In this document: positions 1,243-19,986 of the stretch, piece by piece
How the letters are laid out: every line of letters begins with the position of its first letter
Position numbering within the stretch: position 1 is the first letter of the stretch
Virus record (IMG/VR): IMGVR_UViG_3300047323_000428
Coordinates: 85,208 to 111,080 of that record
Strand: one strand, 5' to 3'
DNA from: a virus
Lineage: Duplodnaviria > Heunggongvirae > Uroviricota > Caudoviricetes
Length of the DNA stretch: 25,873 nucleotides
Translations under genes and position numbers: made by a program
The notes under the pieces: model-generated
What the model saw: the letters and a program-made list of their open reading frames with translations, nothing else
Databases searched by the model: none
Told to the model about the DNA's origin: nothing

Positions 1243-1256
1243 TGTCAAAATTGACT
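1243..1256. promoter_or_regulatory. Operator, AGTCA-N4-TGACT family (1 mismatch)
   Basis: TGTCAAAATTGACT, just downstream of the minus-strand promoter of the CobT-like gene. Confidence 0.75.
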
Positions 1257-1267
1257 GTATGAACGAC

Positions 1268-1296
1268 ATTCTATGTGCGCACTTCAGGGAGCGCAA
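1268..1296 (-). promoter_or_regulatory. Sigma70-like promoter for the leftward (CobT-like) operon
   Basis: Minus strand TTGCGC (1296-1291), 17 bp spacer, TAGAAT (1273-1268); flanked by two operators. Confidence 0.6.
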
Positions 1297-1297
1297 C

Positions 1298-1311
1298 AGT
1301 CAAAGTTGACT
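1298..1311. promoter_or_regulatory. Operator AGTCA-N4-TGACT
   Basis: AGTCAAAGTTGACT, extending to CAGTCAA-AG-TTGACTG; next to the -35 element. Confidence 0.85.
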
Positions 1312-1324
1312 GACCTAGCGGGCG

Positions 1325-1347
1325 AAAAGAAAGCGGCCGGAGCCGCT
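1325..1347 (-). terminator. Rho-independent terminator after the 74-aa gene
   Basis: AGCGGC-CGGA-GCCGCT stem-loop followed on the minus strand by TTCTTTT. Confidence 0.6.
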
Positions 1348-1355
1348 AGGAGTGA

Positions 1356-1369
1356 AGTCAATACTGACT
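1356..1369. promoter_or_regulatory. Operator AGTCA-N4-TGACT
   Basis: AGTCAATACTGACT immediately after the stop codon of the 1370..1594 gene. Confidence 0.8.
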
Positions 1370-1594
1370 TTAAATGAGACGGATCAGTGCGGCCGCGCCC
1401 GAGTCAGTGCTGATAAGCAGGAGTGCGCCGAGCGCCGGGTGCATCACCTTGTTGATGAGCGAGGAACCCAGGTCCAGCCGCCCCAGCAGGGCCGAGCTCT
1501 CCATGTATTCCGCGAACTCGTCGGGCTCGATCAGGGAGCCGATTTGGGTTGCGTTGATGACTGCGTTTTGCACTTGATTGTTACCCGTGTTCAT
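1370..1594 (-). CDS. Hypothetical phage protein, 74 aa
   Basis: ORF with RBS GGAGAG, its own upstream TATAAT plus operator, and a downstream terminator. Confidence 0.7.
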   Translation of the reverse strand: MNTGNNQVQNAVINATQIGSLIEPDEFAEYMESSALLGRLDLGSSLINKVMHPALGALLLISTDSGAAALIRLI

Positions 1595-1644
1595 TTGACT
1601 TCACTCTCCAAAAACTGACGTTCGATATGATTCGCTGCTGAAAC

Positions 1645-1663
1645 ATTATAGTCAACACTGACT
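1645..1663 (-). promoter_or_regulatory. Operator AGTCA-N4-TGACT (1650-1663) fused to a perfect -10 TATAAT (1650-1645)
   Basis: Minus strand caatAGTCAGTGTTGACTATAATg. Confidence 0.85.
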
Positions 1664-1752
1664 ATTGTTACTACATTTCGAGTGTTCGTTTTCGTCCACT
1701 CGGGATTGCGTTCGGTAAAAAAGTGCGCAAGAATCCGGCACATGGAGCGAAC

Positions 1753-1766
1753 AGTCACGGCTGACT
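1753..1766. promoter_or_regulatory. Operator AGTCA-N4-TGACT upstream of the repressor gene
   Basis: AGTCACGGCTGACT exact match. Confidence 0.8.
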
Positions 1767-1798
1767 TACGCTCATATGGGACGTCGCCCACCCAACAC

Positions 1799-1828
1799 AG
1801 TCAGTATTTATTACTATCTGACTATAAT
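1799..1828 (+). promoter_or_regulatory. Putative repressor-gene promoter: degenerate operator half-sites plus TATAAT (1823-1828)
   Basis: AGTCAGTATTTATTACTATCTGACTATAAT; same TGACTATAAT junction as other sites; no canonical -35. Confidence 0.6.
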
Positions 1829-1880
1829 CGATTCAACAAGATTCGCGGGACGTCCCGCTTCAAATACAGGGAGAGTTAGC

Positions 1881-2309
1881 ATGAACGCCAAGAAGAACGA
1901 CCAGCCTCAGAGCCTCACCGTTTCGGAATACTTCGACGCACAAGTGTCACTGCGCCAAATCACCCTTCAACAACTGAGCGTCAACATCGGCGGCGCGATC
2001 AAGCCAAACATGCTTTCGATGATCCGCCAGGGTCACTCAAAGCTGCCGCTCAAGCACGTTGCAAAGGTCGCTCGGGCGCTGGGCGTCGATCCGATGTTCC
2101 TGATGAAGCTGTGTCTGCAGGAATACCAGCCGGAGAACTGGCACGCGATTCAAGAAGTGATGGGCAATCAGCCACTTCTGACGCACAACGAGATTCAGAT
2201 GATCGAGGCGATCCGAAAGGCCAACCCGCACAACCCCAAACTGCGCACGCAAGCAGACGAGGAAAAGTTTGTCAGAGTCGTCGCCTCCTTGAGAGGTGAT
2301 AACGAGTGA
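1881..2309 (+). CDS. XRE/Cro-cI family HTH regulator, probable phage master repressor, 142 aa
   Basis: Start moved to ATG 1881 (RBS GGGAGAG). HTH-like segment ITLQQLSVNIGGAIKPNMLSMIRQGHSKLPLKHVAKVARALGVDP. Divergent from the lytic genes with operators in between. No S24 peptidase domain. Confidence 0.75.
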   Translation: MNAKKNDQPQSLTVSEYFDAQVSLRQITLQQLSVNIGGAIKPNMLSMIRQGHSKLPLKHVAKVARALGVDPMFLMKLCLQEYQPENWHAIQEVMGNQPLLTHNEIQMIEAIRKANPHNPKLRTQADEEKFVRVVASLRGDNE

Positions 2310-2357
2310 GTGAGCAGGTGCGGGCGAGTTCATAAACAAGTTCTAAGCAGTTCCACG

Positions 2358-2386
2358 AAGCGTCCCAATGGGGCGCTTTTTTATTT
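2358..2386 (+). terminator. Rho-independent terminator of the repressor gene
   Basis: AAGCGTCCC-AAT-GGGGCGCTT followed by TTTTATTT. Confidence 0.8.
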
Positions 2387-2406
2387 CCCAGAGCCGGGTG
2401 CTAACA

Positions 2407-2422
2407 CTGTTTATTTATACAG
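2407..2422. promoter_or_regulatory. LexA (SOS) box
   Basis: CTGT-TTATTTAT-ACAG matches CTGT-N8-ACAG with an AT-rich core; the palindrome extends to ACACTGT...ACAGTGT (2404-2425). Confidence 0.75.
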
Positions 2423-2442
2423 TGTCGAGCGATTGATAGGAT
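2414..2442 (+). promoter_or_regulatory. Putative LexA-repressed sigma70 promoter (extended -10)
   Basis: TTTATA (2414-2419, inside the SOS box), 17 bp spacer, TGa-TAGGAT (2434-2442). Confidence 0.5.
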
Positions 2443-2550
2443 TGTAGGACCGTTGGAGGCGTAAAACAACTGGTAGTTGGCGGAAATGTAAAAAAATGTA
2501 GGCGGCTGTTTCATAATCGTCACAGCAACTTTTACCTACGTATTGCCGCC

Positions 2551-3243
2551 CTACGCCTCCACACACGGGTCTGTCCTAGTAACGCCCACCATCCGAACCG
2601 GTTGACCGGCATCGTTCCGGTAAATTTGGAACACTATCGTCACTTTGGGACGAATAGCGTCCCTTTCTCTGAACACTACCTGATAGCGTTGGGTCGGTTC
2701 CAATAAGGCTCGATTGTAGAAATCGTCAACCACCGGTTTATTTTCTTCAGATAATAGGCTTCGGAAGCTATCATGCGAGGGCAGCAGGTCTGGTGGAGCT
2801 TCCAAGTGTTGTCGAGCTAGATCGCTCCAATAGCACTTGCCTGTGATGAGGTCTTCCTCAATCACTCCAGCCTCCAAGATTGCGAGCGCGGCACACAATC
2901 GGCTTTCGTTGGCTATGACCTGTTCAACCAACTCTTGGCGCATCTGCCCAAAGCGCCCCTCTCTTTCTAGTCTAAGTTGCTTCTCAATTGATTGGAGAGC
3001 CTCGTCCCCATAGCGTAGCCACACCCAATTCACTCCGAGGTGGTTAGCAACTTCTTGGAGGACGTCAAAGCCTATGTCTCCTCCCTTCAACCATTTGGCA
3101 ACAGCTTGAGGAGTGACAGAGATGGAGCGAGCTAGCGATGCCGCGGTCATTTGTTTGTAACTAAGGACTTGTCTTAGTCTGTCAGGAAACCCTGACCCTA
3201 TACCTTGGCTTTGCAAGTTAGCTTCCTCTTGGTCCAGAATCAT
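2551..3243 (-). CDS. XRE-HTH + PAS-domain transcriptional regulator, 230 aa, low GC
   Basis: N-terminal FPDRLRQVL...TAASLARSISVTPQAVAKWLKGG...VANHLGVNWVWLRYGD is an XRE HTH. C-terminal ESRLCAALAILEAGVIEEDLITGKCYWSD...YRNDAGQPVRMVGV follows the PAS_3/PAC pattern. Confidence 0.8.
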   Translation of the reverse strand: MILDQEEANLQSQGIGSGFPDRLRQVLSYKQMTAASLARSISVTPQAVAKWLKGGDIGFDVLQEVANHLGVNWVWLRYGDEALQSIEKQLRLEREGRFGQMRQELVEQVIANESRLCAALAILEAGVIEEDLITGKCYWSDLARQHLEAPPDLLPSHDSFRSLLSEENKPVVDDFYNRALLEPTQRYQVVFRERDAIRPKVTIVFQIYRNDAGQPVRMVGVTRTDPCVEA

Positions 3244-3473
3244 CTTTAGTTTTTGAACAGGCGCGGCCCCGCTCTCTCATTGTTTTATTGGAGTTTGACC
3301 GCGAATTATATTTGAGAACTGATACTGGAAAGATAGGATCGAGACAATGTTGCCCGATTGGGACATTGCTTGCGGCGTCTGCTTTGTTGTCCAATTCTTG
3401 TCTTCTCGCAACGCTCATAGCTATTTCCGTTCCACGCTAGTTTCCCGCGCAGGTAGCACGCCCTGTAGCTTGG

Positions 3474-3491
3474 TTGGTATCAAGATACCAA
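3474..3491. promoter_or_regulatory. Perfect palindrome upstream of parA (operator or centromere candidate)
   Basis: TTGGTATC-AA-GATACCAA, with a further ATACC copy 3 bp after the first. Confidence 0.4.
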
Positions 3492-3525
3492 AATACCTAG
3501 CAGAGAAGCAGAGTTGAGAAGTGCC

Positions 3526-3554
3526 TTGAGGAATCGGCTGCTTTCGACTACGCT
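3526..3554 (+). promoter_or_regulatory. Putative parA promoter
   Basis: TTGAGG, 17 bp spacer, TACGCT. Confidence 0.4.
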
Positions 3555-3586
3555 ACGCGGCAATCACAGTAGCCAGCGAGGCAGCA

Positions 3587-4258
3587 ATGTCCGTAATCAA
3601 GGACGTATTTATGGTGGGAACAGAGAAGGGAGGTGTCGGCAAATCTACCTTCACTCAGAACTTGGCTGTTATACGCGCATCTCTCGACCGACGTGTGGCG
3701 GTATTTGATCTGGACGGGCAGGGCACGACCACGAAGTGGGCGTTGCGGCGCGCGGAGCATCCCGAACTGACCCAGATTTACGTCGAACGGTGGCCGCGTG
3801 AGAAGCGCCTCACCGAGGAAGAGTTTGCAGACGTGCTCGGTCGCCTCGTCGACCAATACGATGACGTCTTTATCGATGTGGGCGGCAAGGACTCTGATGG
3901 ATTCCGTTACGGGCTGGCGGTCGCTGAGAAAGTCGTCGCGCCGCTTATTCCGTCGCCGGCAGACCTGGACACGGTGCCCGATCTTCACGAATTGCTCGGC
4001 ACCTACACCAAGAAGATCGATGTGCGCGTTGTGCTTAATCAGGCTGACAAGCGCAAGCGCATGACCAAGGCAATGCTGAAACAAATGGAAGCATTCAAGG
4101 ACCGGTTGCCTCTCATGAAGCATCTCGTCGCCTCGCGCGAGAGCTATAAATTCGCCCTCGCTCAAGGCAAAGGCGTGACGGAATTGACCGGCGAGTGGTG
4201 GGATGCGGCCGCCGCCAACGAGATGAAAGATACCTATCTGGGAGCATTCGGAGCATGA
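3587..4258 (+). CDS. parA: ParA-family partition ATPase (short, type Ib-like)
   Basis: Deviant Walker A EKGGVGKST, DLDGQG, VFIDVGG; 223 aa with no N-terminal HTH. Confidence 0.92.
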   Translation: MSVIKDVFMVGTEKGGVGKSTFTQNLAVIRASLDRRVAVFDLDGQGTTTKWALRRAEHPELTQIYVERWPREKRLTEEEFADVLGRLVDQYDDVFIDVGGKDSDGFRYGLAVAEKVVAPLIPSPADLDTVPDLHELLGTYTKKIDVRVVLNQADKRKRMTKAMLKQMEAFKDRLPLMKHLVASRESYKFALAQGKGVTELTGEWWDAAAANEMKDTYLGAFGA

Positions 4259-4623
4259 GTAAAGACGACGTGATGAGCGCCCCAAAGGGTCGCAGTGCCA
4301 TTCTTGGCGCGCTGAAGAGTGAAGTGGCGGCGGTAACGACGGCGCCGCCCGCTGAGACTGTGCGACCGAGTGCCCCACCTGAGCCTCAAGCACCGACTGC
4401 GGAAGAGGGTAGGGCGCCAGCAGGCAAGCTCGACCTCTCGGCCCTGCGTGCGATGCGCCCGAAAAAGGAGGCGCCTGTCCAGCAACCTGTGCGTATTCCG
4501 CCGGCGCTTAAAGAGGATCTTAACTTGATCTGTTTTGCCACCGGGCAAACGAAGAACGACTTCATTGCCGAGGCACTGCGTGTTGCGGTGGCGCGTGAGA
4601 AGAAGCGGCTCGGGATGGATTGA
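4255..4623 (+). CDS. ParG-like ribbon-helix-helix partition protein
   Basis: ATGA overlap with the parA stop; disordered Pro/Ala-rich N-terminus; C-terminal QQPVRIPPALKEDLNLICFATGQTKNDFIAEALRVAV fits an RHH pattern. Confidence 0.75.
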   Translation: MSKDDVMSAPKGRSAILGALKSEVAAVTTAPPAETVRPSAPPEPQAPTAEEGRAPAGKLDLSALRAMRPKKEAPVQQPVRIPPALKEDLNLICFATGQTKNDFIAEALRVAVAREKKRLGMD

Positions 4624-4644
4624 CCGCCTCCTTGCAGACGCTTT

Positions 4645-4894
4645 TCGGGTTTTGAGGAACGCCCCAATCGGGTTTTGGGGAACGGTCCAACCTAGTTAAA
4701 AAGAAGTTAAAGGAAGTTAACAGAAAGAGGGTCGGGTCTGAAAGCCTTGTGTGGCAACGCCTTGAGCAAAGTAGGGCGTTTCTCAAAACCCGATACTTTG
4801 TTCCTCAAAGCCCGATACTGGCGTATCTCAAAACCCGAAAGCGTTCCTCAAAACCCGATAACAAAAGTTCCTCATAACCCGATAGTTGTCCACA
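4645..4894. repeat. Iteron plasmid origin (oriV): 7 iterons, AT-rich core, DnaA-like box
   Basis: Consensus GTTCCTCAAAACCCGATA. Direct copies at 4778, 4800, 4823, 4843 and 4867 (mean spacing about 22 bp); inverted copies at 4645-4660 and 4667-4683. AT-rich AGTTAA x3 tract at about 4692-4725. TTGTCCACA at 4886-4894. Confidence 0.9.
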
Positions 4895-4929
4895 TCTCAA
4901 ATCGGTGGGTGCGTGCTAACCTCGCCGGC

Positions 4930-5751
4930 ATGAAAACCAACACCGCTCTCGACATTCTGAATCGCCGTGCGGCTGCCCAGCAAAAGGCCGCTCCGGTTCA
5001 GACGCAGCTTGAACTGTGGTCGGAGAAGGTGCGTGGCATTCCAAACTCGTTCGCTCGGTGCGCACTCTTCACGGCGGCCGGCAAGAAAGAGCCTCGCTCC
5101 ACTTTCAACCAGGACGTCATCTTCTCGGTGCAGGGGTTCGAGCTGACCTACACCGGTGAGGAGCTACGCCAGGACGATCAGGACGTGTTCCTTCAGCTCG
5201 TCCACATGACGCGTGGCATTCCCCTCGGCCACAAGCTCGAAGTGACCGGATACGAGATTCTCAAGGCGCTCGGGTGGGGGCGGGGAGGGCGCGACTACGA
5301 GCGCCTGCGCGACAGCATCGAGCGGCTGTCGGACACGAAGATCGTCCTGCAGAGCAGCAACGTTCGATTCAAAGGCGGATTGCTGCCATCGATGACGCGT
5401 GTGGGCGACTCTGTCGCGAGCCGATTCCGTCTTTGGCTCGATCCCGACGTGATCGCACTTTTCGGCGAGAACGAATACTCGCTGGTCGATTGGAAGGACC
5501 GACTCACTCTCGGCTCCCTTGCCAAATGGCTGCACAGCTTCTACTTCACGCATAAGGAGCCGCTTGCCTATACCGTCGAGAAGATCCACAAGCTCTGCGG
5601 TAGCAAGGCGAAGAACCTGCGATTGTTCAAAGCCAAGCTCAAGCTCGCGCTCGAGGAATTGGTGCAGATCGGCTTTCTCGAAACCTATCAGATCATGGGC
5701 AGTCTGGTCTCAGTGCGCCGGCGATTCCCGCAGCCGCAACTAGGCAACTAA
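4930..5751 (+). CDS. trfA: TrfA-family plasmid replication initiator
   Basis: RGIPNSFARCALF, YTGEELRQDDQDVFLQLVH and LAKWLHSFYFTH match TrfA-family motifs. Start set at ATG 4930 because the longer ORF runs through the iterons. Confidence 0.85.
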   Translation: MKTNTALDILNRRAAAQQKAAPVQTQLELWSEKVRGIPNSFARCALFTAAGKKEPRSTFNQDVIFSVQGFELTYTGEELRQDDQDVFLQLVHMTRGIPLGHKLEVTGYEILKALGWGRGGRDYERLRDSIERLSDTKIVLQSSNVRFKGGLLPSMTRVGDSVASRFRLWLDPDVIALFGENEYSLVDWKDRLTLGSLAKWLHSFYFTHKEPLAYTVEKIHKLCGSKAKNLRLFKAKLKLALEELVQIGFLETYQIMGSLVSVRRRFPQPQLGN

Positions 5752-5773
5752 CTGTCCGACGCCATGCGTCCCT

Positions 5774-5796
5774 TTATCCACAGAATCGGTGCATAA
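5774..5796. promoter_or_regulatory. DnaA boxes downstream of rep
   Basis: Perfect TTATCCACA (5774-5782) and an inverted 1-mismatch TTATGCACC (5796-5788). Confidence 0.55.
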
Positions 5797-5816
5797 CCCT
5801 GTTGAGAACCGGTCAC

Positions 5817-6465: not shown

Positions 6466-6780
6466 TTAGGCGGCGATTAAGAACTGCTCGCGGTCCTTGT
6501 CTCGGATCCACGCCGGCGCCCGACCCTGCCCACTCCACTCGGCACCCGTCTCCGGGTCGCGGTATTTCGCAGCAACCTTGCCTTTCTGTCGGCCTCTCTT
6601 TCTGGCCGGCGTCATTGCCTGCTGGATATCCTCGAGGGTGATTTCGTTCTCATACATCAACTGCTGGATTTGGCCCATTGCCTGCGAGCGCTGATGCGTC
6701 TCCGCTTCCTTAATGGCTTCCTGCAGTCGCGCGAGTTGTTCTCGCATCTCCTTGATGGATTGTGGGGAATTCGGTGCCAT
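6466..6780 (-). CDS. hns: H-NS family nucleoid protein, 104 aa
   Basis: Start reassigned to ATG 6780 (RBS AAGGA). Coiled-coil N-terminus and the signature AKYRDPETGAEWSGQGRAPAWI. Confidence 0.9.
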   Translation of the reverse strand: MAPNSPQSIKEMREQLARLQEAIKEAETHQRSQAMGQIQQLMYENEITLEDIQQAMTPARKRGRQKGKVAAKYRDPETGAEWSGQGRAPAWIRDKDREQFLIAA

Positions 6781-6788
6781 GTCTTTCC

Positions 6789-7430
6789 TTAACTCAGCCA
6801 GAGCATTCGCTCCATGTCGCTGTCTAGCTTGATGATGGTTTGATACGCGTGACGCAACTGCGGCCACTCCATGTCGAAGATTTCGGCCAGCTCCAGGGAG
6901 AGTCCGAATAGCGGGGTCACGCGCTCCTCGACTTGCTGCCAAAAGACGTAGTGCGTGCGAATGTGGTGAGGCGCCGCACGCAGGATCGCTTCGGCAAGTG
7001 GTGTGACCATTTGACGCTGGCGGAATTCCCGCACCCTCTCCCATTTGAGCGTAATGAGGTCGTCGATCGGCAGATCCATTTCAAGTCCGAAGAGGACCGC
7101 TGCCGGGCGCGGTGTCGAGAGTTTCATCAAACCGCGCTTGAGCTCGCCAAGCGTCATGCGCTCTTGCGGTATAGCAAAGCGCATCAGTGGCACCTCTACG
7201 ATCTCGCCTCGTGCGAAAGCCGCGGTGAGTTGCGCAAGCAGTGTTTCGACAATTGCGACCCCTTCCTCGTCGCGGTGATCGAGTTTGAGCCGGGTGAGGA
7301 ATGCGTGAAGCTGGACCGGATGGATTTTTTCCAGCGGAGTGTCCCACATGGGGGATTGGGCGATGGGGGTGTCACCCAGGAGAGACGACAACTCTCCAAC
7401 GTTTTTGAGCGCCTGCATGTTGTTCTCCAT
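6789..7430 (-). CDS. Hypothetical protein with a degenerate tyrosine-recombinase-like segment
   Basis: AAVLFGLEMDLPIDDLITLKWERV resembles integrase box I (ll..tGlR..El..L.w..i) with Pro in place of the catalytic Arg; no HxxR/Y box II seen. Confidence 0.5.
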   Translation of the reverse strand: MENNMQALKNVGELSSLLGDTPIAQSPMWDTPLEKIHPVQLHAFLTRLKLDHRDEEGVAIVETLLAQLTAAFARGEIVEVPLMRFAIPQERMTLGELKRGLMKLSTPRPAAVLFGLEMDLPIDDLITLKWERVREFRQRQMVTPLAEAILRAAPHHIRTHYVFWQQVEERVTPLFGLSLELAEIFDMEWPQLRHAYQTIIKLDSDMERMLWLS

Positions 7431-17959: not shown

Positions 17960-18703
17960 TCAGGGGCTTGACAATGCCGCTTCACCCATCGGGCGACGAA
18001 TGCGCTGCATCGGCCCGGTCGCGGCTTCCTCGAGCGTCATGCCGAGCTTCATCCGGTAGGCGATCGTCTGTCTTGACCTGCCGACCAATTCCTCGAGCTG
18101 GCGCATCGTCACCATCTGACCCTGCCATTCGACGGTCGCCTTGGCGGCTCTCATGCGGCCCTTCGCTTCCTCCGAGTGCGCGATGCCCGTGTTGGGAGGT
18201 GGCTTGCCTTTGTTGGCTGCGCTCAGGTTGGCACGGTGCGCCGCGCTCTTTGGCTTGCCAAGGTGGGCCACCCGGATCGCCTCCCGCGACTGGTCTGTGT
18301 GCGGCGCTCCAGGCTTGCCCATTTTCGCAGCGCTGATTCTGGCCCGAGCCTCTGGTGAGTTCTTGAGGCCGCGCCTCGATCCGTTACGCCCTTCCCAGCA
18401 AATGTTGTAGCCGAAGGCGTCATCGGTCAATTGTCGGCCGCGGATCTGCTCTTCCTCGATCCGATCAAGATCGTCGCCTTCGCAGTAGCAGATCACCTCT
18501 AGGACGAAGGAGTCTTCCCCATATTTCGACCAGGCGTTCTGCAGGCGCCCATTGTAGTGAGCGCCCCTGCGGAGTAATTTTCGATGGTCGGCGAACCGCC
18601 TGAGCATGTTGACCGATTGCCCGACATACACCCTGTCGTTCGCTGTGTTGCGAATCTGGTATATGCCGGACTTGGCAAACAGCTCACGATCTTCTTCCGT
18701 CAT
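17960..18703 (-). CDS. Free-standing GIY-YIG homing endonuclease with NUMOD3-type repeats
   Basis: Start MTEEDR at 18703 (ATGA overlap). SGIYQIRN...VYVGQS...RFADH and HYNGRLQNAWSKYG; repeats HTDQSREAI and HSEEAKGRM. Confidence 0.88.
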   Translation of the reverse strand: MTEEDRELFAKSGIYQIRNTANDRVYVGQSVNMLRRFADHRKLLRRGAHYNGRLQNAWSKYGEDSFVLEVICYCEGDDLDRIEEEQIRGRQLTDDAFGYNICWEGRNGSRRGLKNSPEARARISAAKMGKPGAPHTDQSREAIRVAHLGKPKSAAHRANLSAANKGKPPPNTGIAHSEEAKGRMRAAKATVEWQGQMVTMRQLEELVGRSRQTIAYRMKLGMTLEEAATGPMQRIRRPMGEAALSSP

Positions 18704-19986
18704 GCAACCACTCGCACCAATTCCTTCGCGTTGCGATAGTAGAACTGGCCGCCCACCACGGCGAAGTCGGTGATCGGGATGTATTCCTGATTCACGGCCT
18801 TCTTTTCCGTGTCGATATGCGCCAGCAGAAAGCCCATGTCCCACTTCTCGGCATTGCAATACGACGCATCCTGCAGGTGGCCGCACCCCGTTTGAATCCA
18901 GCTATAGGAGCCGAAAATCTCGTTGTAGCAGGGCGTCACCTTGAACTTGTGGGAGTGACCATTCGTTCCCGGCAAGCCGAGCTTCACGCCTTCGGGGAAG
19001 TGGTTCGTTGCGTAGCAGTCGAAATAGACCTTATAGTTCTTGGCGACTTCCGACTTGATGTTCGTTGCCGTGTAGGCGCCGAGGTCTGACTTGGCAATGA
19101 AGTTCACCTGGAACTTGTCGAGAGCGAGCAGACTACCCACGGTAAAGCCGTGCAGGTCGGAAAGCAATACCTTCATCGCAGGCGTTGCATCTGCAAGGTG
19201 CTTTACCAGACGATCCTCGTGATTGCCCGAGATCCAGTCGATCTGAGCATTGGGGCAGGCCTCACGCAGCGGCTTCAGGATGCGTTCGTGGACGAACTTG
19301 ATTTTGCCCACCACATCGAAGTTGCGCGGGTCTACCGCGTAGCGACCGAACTCCGTTGCATCCCACACGTCGCCGTTGAGCGCGATGATTTCGGGCTGCA
19401 CTCGCTTCGCAGTGTCGATCAATACCCGGAGATAGAACGGGTCCACAAGTTCGTCGTGCAAGTCGGAGCAGACGAGAATGGTTTGGAATCGCTTCTTGTC
19501 TTTGCGCTCGTATTTCGCCGCATATGAGGCGCGCTGCTCTGCCAAGTTACGATAGTGGTCCACCGAGACATGCTTCGCAACATGGCGCTCCAACTGATGC
19601 TGCTGGCGCGAGAGCTTCAGTTGCGCCTGGCGCATGAACTCGTTGAAGGTGCCGAAGTGGTGATTCCAGGCGGATTCTGCGAGCGGCCCGTATTTGCGGA
19701 ACGAATCGCGCGTGACGCCCTTTTCCGAATTGAGCAGCGCGAACGTGCGCAGGTGCTCGATACACTCTTCCGCCGTCGCCTCACGGATGCGCTCCGTGTT
19801 CTCCGACAGGGGAAGCTCCACGCCATTGCGGTTGATGACCTTGCCCGCGTATTGCTTGGTGCGGCGCAGAGCGACCGCCTTGTTCTTCACCGTCTGCACC
19901 GAGAGCCCAAGCTCCCGCGCGACGTCTTGCATGGAGGGGAACTCTTTGGTGTTGTTGAACACCTTGACGAATTGGTCGTGCATCAT
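18700..19986 (-). CDS. Calcineurin-like metallophosphoesterase with N-terminal DNA-binding-like domains
   Basis: SDLH, NGDVWD, GNHEDR, GHSH motifs; N-terminal SMQDVARELGLSVQTVKNKA resembles an HTH. Confidence 0.85.
   Translation of the reverse strand: MMHDQFVKVFNNTKEFPSMQDVARELGLSVQTVKNKAVALRRTKQYAGKVINRNGVELPLSENTERIREATAEECIEHLRTFALLNSEKGVTRDSFRKYGPLAESAWNHHFGTFNEFMRQAQLKLSRQQHQLERHVAKHVSVDHYRNLAEQRASYAAKYERKDKKRFQTILVCSDLHDELVDPFYLRVLIDTAKRVQPEIIALNGDVWDATEFGRYAVDPRNFDVVGKIKFVHERILKPLREACPNAQIDWISGNHEDRLVKHLADATPAMKVLLSDLHGFTVGSLLALDKFQVNFIAKSDLGAYTATNIKSEVAKNYKVYFDCYATNHFPEGVKLGLPGTNGHSHKFKVTPCYNEIFGSYSWIQTGCGHLQDASYCNAEKWDMGFLLAHIDTEKKAVNQEYIPITDFAVVGGQFYYRNAKELVRVVA

Follow-up and report, generated by a model that had tools for sequence, protein, structure and literature searches.

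A phage-encoded XRE-PAS regulator and a candidate antisense promoter in the immunity region of a 111-kb phage-plasmid

The phage-plasmid described here carries, beside the gene of its likely master repressor, a gene for a regulator that joins an N-terminal XRE-type helix-turn-helix (HTH) to a C-terminal PAS domain (XRE-PAS). As judged from its sequence, XRE-PAS is a phage-encoded sensory transcription factor outside the VqmA, TF-smORF and CI/S24 classes, which probably helps to set the level of the main repressor of the phage. To our knowledge, only a few phages have their own sensory transcription factors, examples being VqmA of VP882 and the TF-smORF modules with XRE or LuxR factors, all of which work by means of small antirepressor proteins. 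XRE-PAS differs from them in sensor architecture, and it has become fixed in the immunity core throughout a branch of ~110-kb phages and phage-plasmids with Burkholderiales-type hosts.

Architecture and setting of the regulator

The window, i.e., the whole stretch of DNA that was analysed (25,873 nucleotides), forms the final 25.9 kb of a viral record of 111,080 bp, whose completeness is rated at 100%. The genome contains phage genes (ligase, primase, DnaB, PhoH, endolysin and tail fibre) and, on the same replicon, a plasmid module composed of ParA, a small partner gene, seven iterons and TrfA; the presence of phage genes together with replication and partition genes on one replicon identifies the genome as a phage-plasmid. 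The initial annotation had described an XRE-HTH and PAS sensor placed between repressor and replicon, and both the domain content and the position were borne out: the one-component regulator is located in the lysogeny region, with XRE1 on one side and parA on the other (Table 1). The intergenic region upstream of XRE-PAS, toward the divergent parA, measures 343 bp (3244-3586). A megablast search with positions 1300-5800 against plasmid and phage collections gave no match.

Table 1. Coordinates of the features discussed, in positions of the window; a dot marks elements without strand
Feature	Position	Strand	Remarks
Five AGTCA-N4-TGACT dyads flanking orf74	1243..1766	.	Between the CobT-like gene and XRE1
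orf74	1370..1594	-	Heads the leftward early block; divergent from XRE1; likeness to Cro in position only
XRE1, 142-aa HTH protein	1881..2309	+	Likely master (CI/C1-like) repressor; convergent with XRE-PAS
Terminator past XRE1	2357-2379
LexA (SOS) box CTGT-N8-ACAG	2407..2422	.	About +13 to +28 of P_as; near-consensus
P_as promoter-like element	2441..2469	-	TTGTTT (2469-2464), 17 bp, TACAAT (2446-2441)
O1 palindrome CAAC-N5-GTTG	2467..2479	.	Candidate XRE-PAS operator; overlaps the -35 of P_as
XRE-PAS regulator gene	2551..3243	-	230 aa from ATG 3243
Single PAS (PAS_3-like) domain, residues 123-224	2572..2877	-	Profiles, model, Foldseek, purifying selection
O2, second AAAC/CAAC-N5-GTTG site	2727..2739	.	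Inside the XRE-PAS coding sequence, codons K/Q-P-x-V-D
Long helical linker, residues 80-122	2878..3006	-	Model; C-terminal part is predicted dimer interface
XRE/Cro-C1-type HTH domain, residues 19-79	3007..3189	-	Pfam HTH_3, model helices 19-78, invariant columns
Putative XRE-PAS promoter, TATAAT -10-like hexamer	3305..3310	-	Block conserved with L002; weak -35
parA	3587..4258	+	Starts the swappable maintenance module; divergent from XRE-PAS
Small partner gene	4255..4623	+	Overlaps parA stop (ATGA); possible centromere-binding role, by position only
Iterons, two inverted and five direct copies, about 20-23 bp	4645..4884	.	Ahead of trfA
TrfA-family replication initiator	4930..5751	+	PF07042, 1.2e-31; ORF open from 4747, probable start Met62

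The XRE-PAS open reading frame is real. Besides the ATG, a TTG at 3216, preceded by AAGAGGA, would yield a product of 221 aa; this codon lines up with the start used in the relative L002 and may be the true start. The gene call in the database begins at Met32 and gives a protein of 199 aa in which the HTH would be cut, but homologues back the longer form. The gene has a GC content of 50.9%, compared with 60.7% for the 111-kb genome, and falls in the lowest 1.5% of 693-bp genome windows, while its GC3, 0.52, lies below the 0.63-0.84 of the other genes measured and the 68-84% of its neighbours. Thus, the low GC reported initially (about 47%) is confirmed in kind, although the ligase gene then used as a reference has 60.7% (GC3 0.82), and not 67%, overall. 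The recent acquisition that had been deduced from it does not stand: orthologues with 37-67% identity hold the same place in 8 relatives, and low GC3 was found in all seven that were measured (0.52-0.67, against about 0.75-0.85 in flanking phage genes). As this composition is common to the relatives, it is an old and maintained property of the regulatory region, rather than a sign of recent gain.

The HTH domain is matched by Pfam HTH_3 (PF01381) over residues 32-76, with 27.4 bits at a cut-off of 23. The profile of the XRE-PAS family also matches the 434 Cro and repressor proteins and the P22 C2 repressor, and the modelled domain has the five-helix fold of the XRE/Cro-C1 type; it includes a near-invariant VNWVWLRYG motif at residues 71-79. 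For the C-terminal half, XRE-PAS alone does not reach the threshold of PAS_3 (PF08447; 13 bits against 25.6, E 0.13). Nonetheless, the sub-threshold match spans positions 3-88 of the 89 of the profile, PAS_3 is matched by 27 of 39 family members (best 6e-31), the family profile aligns with FixL PAS-A (8js5) at 4e-24, and many multi-PAS sensors match residues 100-223. The structure prediction proposed in the initial annotation was run with AlphaFold (AF2) and gave a model with a pLDDT of 90.5, consisting of the HTH (residues 19-78), a long helix (80-122) and a PAS domain with five strands (126-131, 137-139, 186-191, 201-209 and 215-224). Foldseek matched it to the PAS domains of Brucella LOV-HK, 3mr0 and FixL, with E values of 2e-7 and below. 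By predicted fold and homology together, the assignment of a PAS domain is secure.

A homodimer was also predicted, with an ipSAE of 0.61 against 0.00 for the best control; of the proteins solved as one-chain pairs, 20 of 30 reach the mark applied, as does 1 of 23 of those solved as single chains. The dimer runs agree in at least 87% of contacts, the partner having a pLDDT of at least 76. The predicted interface is symmetric and is formed by residues 106-129, the PAS sheet and, from the VNWVWLRYG motif, residues 72-74. Because solved structures include many PAS dimers, passing the mark may partly reflect likeness to these and is not a proof. The model suggests that XRE-PAS is a homodimeric one-component regulator, in which a coiled-coil-like helix connects the XRE HTH to one PAS domain.

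Conservation is uneven along the protein: the mean identity of pairs among seven phage orthologues falls from 0.64 in the HTH to 0.37 in the PAS domain and 0.30 in the linker. Omega values of 0.17-0.39 indicate purifying selection on the PAS domain of the phage orthologues, and are rough because dS is saturated between most pairs. The phage group displays its own conserved PAS motifs, (S/T)H(D/E)xFRxL and K/Q-P-x-V-D, which extend beyond the residues of the predicted interface. The HP(D/E)D motif of PAS_3 is absent from the phage-group PAS, and no flavin, haem or LOV signature or cofactor motif was recognised in it.

A stable core beside an exchangeable maintenance module

The survey of this locus in relatives, also proposed at the outset, found XRE-PAS to be kept in 8 phage relatives with DNA sequence and in the P0005 contig, which lacks it. 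The order XRE-PAS, XRE1, small ORF, CobT-like gene is seen in L002, L004 (a Paraburkholderia prophage), L007-L010, L093, L094 and the P0005 contig. In these relatives XRE-PAS is convergent with the gene of the 142-aa HTH protein XRE1, which is in turn divergent from an ORF of 61-91 aa heading a block of CobT-like, AAA_5, (sigma-like) and PolIII-alpha genes. The module upstream of XRE-PAS varies: it is composed of ParA, its partner and TrfA in the window and in the P0005 contig, of ParA, partner and Rep3 in L002, and of ParA, an HTH_36 protein and a small integrase in L093, whereas L004 and L007-L010 have an integrase module, accompanied in all of these five save L007 by an HTH_17 Xis. In the protein tree, 12 phage XRE-PAS proteins form one side of a branch (99/98) that separates them from 20 chromosomal homologues, and the type of maintenance does not track the tree. 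This variation shows that a repeatedly swapped cassette, either plasmid or integrative, has its fixed boundary next to the stable XRE-PAS gene.

According to this comparison, the fixation of XRE-PAS is ancient and took place in a branch of beta-proteobacterial phages and phage-plasmids of ~110 kb; the branch is distantly related to the pKpn/AB (SSU5-related) phage-plasmids. Insertion, as the initial annotation had it, applies only on a deep time scale, since the pKpn/AB relatives inspected are without XRE-PAS, and not as a recent event. The objection foreseen there, that homologues might be purely chromosomal, does not arise: the close homologues are phage-borne, and the only chromosomal ones are distant XRE-PAS-PAS forms with 25-36% identity. 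By tblastn, the protein gave only an HTH-only match, in a Klebsiella phage, when searched against phages, and only distant chromid-type PAS proteins when searched against plasmids. In a collection with one genome per species, 209 of 247 candidate stretches encode a relative of XRE-PAS, so that the family extends to at least 209 sampled bacterial species, and its chromosomal members keep one to three PAS domains. NCBIfam contains no family for XRE-PAS and Swiss-Prot no protein with the full architecture; in the literature searched, Swiss-Prot and NCBIfam, neither a characterised member nor a paper on XRE-PAS regulators was found.

XRE1 and XRE-PAS are the only two HTH_3 proteins of the genome. 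XRE1 homologues, with 33-39% identity, are present in Klebsiella phage-plasmids of ~110 kb and in Acinetobacter plasmids of ~90-134 kb, which represent the pKpn and AB phage-plasmid groups (PMC7969092). These relatives are found in Klebsiella and Acinetobacter isolates, and their lysogeny control is poorly understood. Both pJN2-26 (Klebsiella) and pAbNCIMB8209_134 (Acinetobacter) keep the order CobT, small ORF, XRE1, and pJN2-26 additionally keeps the PolIII-alpha and AAA genes; XRE-PAS is absent from both, an integrase lying directly after XRE1. The conservation of XRE1 where XRE-PAS is missing suggests that XRE1 is the likely master repressor, while XRE-PAS is likely an accessory, specific to a sublineage, that was gained by the beta-proteobacterial branch.

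The AGTCA-N4-TGACT dyad has 48 copies in the genome, with at most one mismatch. In pJN2-26, dyads of the AGTAA-N4-TTACT type are found at the XRE1 and small-ORF promoters and after CobT; as dyads with this 5-N4-5 geometry exist without XRE-PAS, the comparison assigns the dispersed operator to XRE1, which most likely reads the 48 copies. The phage P1 C1 repressor has dispersed operators, and XRE1 would resemble it in acting as one repressor at many operators over a phage-plasmid of ~100 kb; this likeness concerns XRE1 and not XRE-PAS, and the C1 and XRE1 proteins are unrelated. Upstream of XRE-PAS, AGTCA dyads are absent in the par-type phages. Two degenerate ones overlap the XRE-PAS/xis promoter region in the integrase-type relatives, where XRE-PAS may thus be repressed in lysogens.

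No match to Peptidase_S24 (PF00717) was obtained anywhere in the 111-kb genome. XRE-PAS was considered for, and rejected from, the autocleavable class of lambda CI and LexA, having an HTH without a Peptidase_S24 domain. As the genome has no autocleavable repressor, a non-classical induction input is plausible.

The spacer between XRE-PAS and XRE1

XRE-PAS and XRE1 converge on a spacer of 214-259 bp, which was compared by alignment among seven phages. A T-run follows the XRE-PAS stop, and the palindrome O1 is almost invariant in the seven phages, its first base differing in two. O1 and the T-run could be a weak hairpin. The symmetry of O1, which reaches the centre in several phages, suits a protein site better than an RNA hairpin. 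RNA folding of the stretch past the XRE-PAS stop, considered as a terminator, gave nothing better than shuffled sequences (z -0.57).

P_as points antisense into the 3' end of XRE1. In six phages it is represented by TTG(T/A)(T/C)T and TA(C/G/A)AAT at a distance of exactly 17 bp, while the sequence between the two hexamers diverges. The element is modest, with 8 of 12 consensus positions; it was not flagged by a scan for consensus promoters and is not recognisable in L010, L093 and L094. A candidate on the opposite (+) strand, directed into the PAS gene (TTTATA, 17 bp, TAGGAT), was rejected, as its -10, unlike P_as, is not conserved in L002 and L007. The LexA box downstream of P_as is present in the window, L002 and L007, and another palindrome takes its place in L008 and L009. 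An SOS-gated antisense RNA of the OOP kind would consist of a promoter convergent on a lysogeny gene, a LexA site and a short antisense transcript; the locus has the promoter-like element and the LexA box, both conserved, and the transcript is a predicted one. An antisense, in-phase ORF across XRE1 was also considered as a product of P_as: its last ~90 codons are open in 9 of 9 phages, but this is unconvincing because 68% of the genes of the genome show the same openness.

The second site, O2, lies 260-274 bp from O1. It is kept in 6 of 6 phages through A-ending Lys/Gln codons and a GTT Val codon, a pattern recognised post hoc, the usage of these codons within the genes being 0.43-0.53 and 0.27, respectively. 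As a dispersed operator CAAC-N5-GTTG was discarded, having just 5 sites in the whole 111-kb genome, for which an excess over chance is not established.

An extended and perfect form, GTCAAC-N5-GTTGAC, occurs at a fixed place in 23 Pseudomonas chromosomal XRE-PAS-PAS loci, whose proteins have 27-29% identity to the phage one. It is located 8-9 bp upstream of TATACT and about 40-50 nt before the start codon; the left flanks of the palindrome are unrelated, and only ~0.016 sites per locus are expected by chance. Together with the phage O1, these palindromes make it reasonable to regard CAAC-N5-GTTG as a candidate operator of the family. Recognition helices are not identical, with TPQAVxKW in the phages and SRTAVHKW in Pseudomonas, and the Ralstonia and Paraburkholderia homologues have other palindromes or none; outside the Pseudomonas putida-type group, the upstream regions of homologues contained no exact CAAC-N5-GTTG. 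The transfer of operator specificity from Pseudomonas to the phages is therefore weak.

Possible mode of action, alternatives and known systems

The reading that we prefer, tentatively and with slightly less than even confidence, is that XRE-PAS is a dimeric accessory regulator acting at O1 and P_as, where LexA and the occupancy of the site by XRE-PAS, as governed by its PAS domain, would jointly set transcription antisense to XRE1. XRE-PAS would most likely bind O1, which overlaps the -35 of P_as just beyond its own gene, and P_as would fire into the 3' end of the master repressor gene. A cue read by the PAS domain, either a ligand or a partner, would alter the action of XRE-PAS at this promoter; the centre of O1, near -39, would fit occlusion as well as class II activation of a weak -35. 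The SOS response would enter through the LexA box located just downstream of P_as in three phages, in a logic resembling the LexA-gated OOP antisense RNA of lambda. The PAS cue and SOS may thus meet on the short piece of DNA between 2400 and 2480 and together affect how much master repressor is present, and hence the switch between lysis and lysogeny. A more far-reaching version appears rather doubtful: induction would be decided at one antisense promoter gated by host LexA and by XRE-PAS, with DNA damage and a PAS cue (metabolite, redox or protein partner) integrated on the same 60 bp, and in XRE-PAS a widespread but unstudied class of one-component regulators would have its first characterised representative.

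The position of the gene would also suit a regulator of the adjacent maintenance module, responding to the state of the host and acting on parAB/rep, and so on copy number and partition, in plasmid forms and on xis/int, and so on excision, in integrating ones. Indeed, XRE-PAS adjoins this module in every relative and in most is divergent from parA (window, L002 and P0005 contig), from xis (L004 and L008-L010) or from the small integrase (L093), and just 75 bp separate it from xis in L004, L008 and L009. Such a role is nevertheless unlikely, considering that XRE-PAS stays conserved while four unrelated types of module are swapped, that the upstream regions share no palindrome across module types, that CAAC-N5-GTTG does not occur between XRE-PAS and parA, and that the xis intergenic region contains dyads of the AGTCA type attributed to XRE1. 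Similarly, the PAS domain might only dimerise or scaffold without receiving any signal, which would make XRE-PAS a constitutive second repressor involved in immunity fine-tuning, superinfection exclusion or the control of host genes. The use of the N-cap helix and PAS sheet in the predicted interface, the divergence of the phage PAS (reflected in its Pfam score), the far lower conservation of PAS and linker compared with the HTH and the lack of a recognised cofactor motif are all in line with it; this, too, is improbable given the purifying selection on the PAS domain, the two conserved motifs beyond the predicted interface and the retention of one to three PAS domains across the whole chromosomal family.

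Two further explanations are much less probable. XRE-PAS, being one of the only two HTH_3 proteins of the genome, could itself be the master repressor and, with or without XRE1, read the AGTCA-N4-TGACT dyads; the dyad and the recognition helix of XRE-PAS are conserved to the same degree, and the degenerate dyads over the XRE-PAS promoter in the integrase-type relatives could mean autoregulation. This is very unlikely, as pJN2-26, which has no XRE-PAS, retains XRE1 along with dyads of like geometry in the corresponding location, and no dyad is found upstream of the gene in the par-type phages. The initial annotation had instead drawn an analogy with VqmA/Qtip and the modules near repA, in which XRE-PAS would activate a divergent small antirepressor gene whose product inactivates the repressor. 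TF-smORF modules, consisting of a transcription factor and a divergent small ORF that inactivates cI (Silpe et al. 2023), do occur near par/repA in linear plasmid phages, some of them with XRE proteins (PMC10432266), and the 343-bp region beside parA would offer room for one. Yet the window and L002 share no conserved ORF of 25 aa or longer there and the alignment contains non-triplet indels, the corresponding region is only 75 bp in integrase-type relatives, and the domain order and HTH class are unlike those of VqmA. The lack of a conserved divergent small ORF of this size thus argues that XRE-PAS belongs to neither the VqmA/Qtip type nor the TF-smORF type; the analogy is not supported, and this last explanation is the least probable, with hardly any weight left to it.

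Returning to an accessory regulator acting at P_as, XRE-PAS shares with VqmA-Phi/Qtip of VP882 and with the TF-smORF modules (PMC10432266, PMC12802170) the presence of a phage transcription factor that has a sensory domain and lies beside the maintenance genes of a phage-plasmid, and like them it could add an induction input other than repressor autocleavage. Whereas VqmA carries its PAS at the N-terminus and a LuxR-type HTH at the C-terminus, XRE-PAS has the reverse order and an XRE-type HTH, and it belongs to another host lineage and phage family (~110 kb, with CobT, AAA and PolIII genes). The comparison with lambda concerns the promoter: the OOP antisense RNA promotes decay of the cII mRNA (PMC2327240), and a LexA site lies within lambda oop-pO (PMC5869508). 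Likewise, P_as is a short promoter-like element, convergent with the lysogeny gene past whose 3' end it lies; it is associated with a LexA site and could lower expression of that gene. The candidate target here would be the maintenance repressor gene itself instead of cII, the transcript is a predicted one, and P_as, unlike pO, carries a candidate operator for a PAS regulator.

The pKpn/AB phage-plasmids (SSU5/pHCM2-related, PMC7969092) resemble the present branch in size (~110 kb), in the block of PolIII-alpha, AAA, CobT, small ORF and XRE1-type genes, and in that phage genes are conserved while plasmid genes vary (PMC7969092); the members inspected differ in having the integrase right after the repressor, without XRE-PAS and without the O1/P_as spacer. 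With the chromosomal XRE-PAS-PAS proteins of the Pseudomonas putida group, Ralstonia, Paraburkholderia and Methylophaga, the phage proteins share the VNWVWLRYG HTH, the linker and the first PAS_3 domain. With 361-491 aa and at least two PAS domains, the chromosomal proteins examined exceed the phage ones in length; their contexts are ordinary chromosomal ones, and the Pseudomonas genes have their GTCAAC-N5-GTTGAC in their own promoter region, whereas the phage group constitutes a separate branch with a single, divergent PAS domain.

Operator-like sites flanking XRE-PAS

In the integrase-type relatives, the 75-bp intergenic region separating xis from the gene of the XRE-PAS regulator contains two degenerate dyads of the AGTCA type, the operators attributed to the likely master repressor XRE1; in L004, L008 and L009 their positions are fixed at -57 and -8 relative to the XRE-PAS start, and there is an overlap between the second dyad and the start codon. 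In the spacer between XRE-PAS and XRE1, L008 and L009 carry a different perfect palindrome in place of the LexA box of the window, and this position may represent a swappable input site. A further palindrome, located on the parA side of XRE-PAS, recurs in L002, a relative of the ParA/Rep3 type, and is absent from relatives of the integrase type; its possible roles are those of a parA operator or of a centromere-like site in the partition module.

Features of the window and of related phages
Feature	Location	Strand	Remarks
Antisense frame of XRE1, in phase, stop-free	window 2037-2339	-	downstream of candidate promoter P_as
Palindrome TTGGTATC-TT-GATACCAA	window 3466-3492		between XRE-PAS and parA
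H-NS-family protein	window 6466-7044	-	PF00816 C-terminal domain, 6e-11
GIY-YIG homing-endonuclease-like ORF	window 17960-18886	-	PHROG 314, 2e-28
xis/XRE-PAS dyad regions	L004:9926-10006; L008:1537-1617; L009:5926-6006
Spacer palindrome CTTTCGACGGC-GTTA-GCCGTCGAAAG	L009, about 6765-6795		at position of window's LexA box
ParE-toxin gene and small upstream partner	L002:5133-5402		close to Rep3 module

The antisense frame of XRE1

The in-phase antisense frame of XRE1 has no stops across the last ~90 codons in all nine phages compared (the window, L002, L004, L007-L010, L093 and L094), stops being confined to the region opposite codons 9-53. Similar openness is displayed by 68% of the genes in the window's genome, and therefore the open frame is probably a codon-bias effect.

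Replication module and other genes

The reading frame of trfA extends back without a stop to 4747, but the five direct iterons (4776-4884) fall within 4747-4929; the true start is probably Met62 (4930). L002, which carries the ParE-toxin gene and its small partner, is the closest relative; no equivalent pair was seen within the window. The H-NS-family gene lies a few kb away from the low-GC regulatory region, and its product could bind the AT-richer immunity region. The GIY-YIG ORF overlaps the metallophosphoesterase gene region at the latter's 3′ end.
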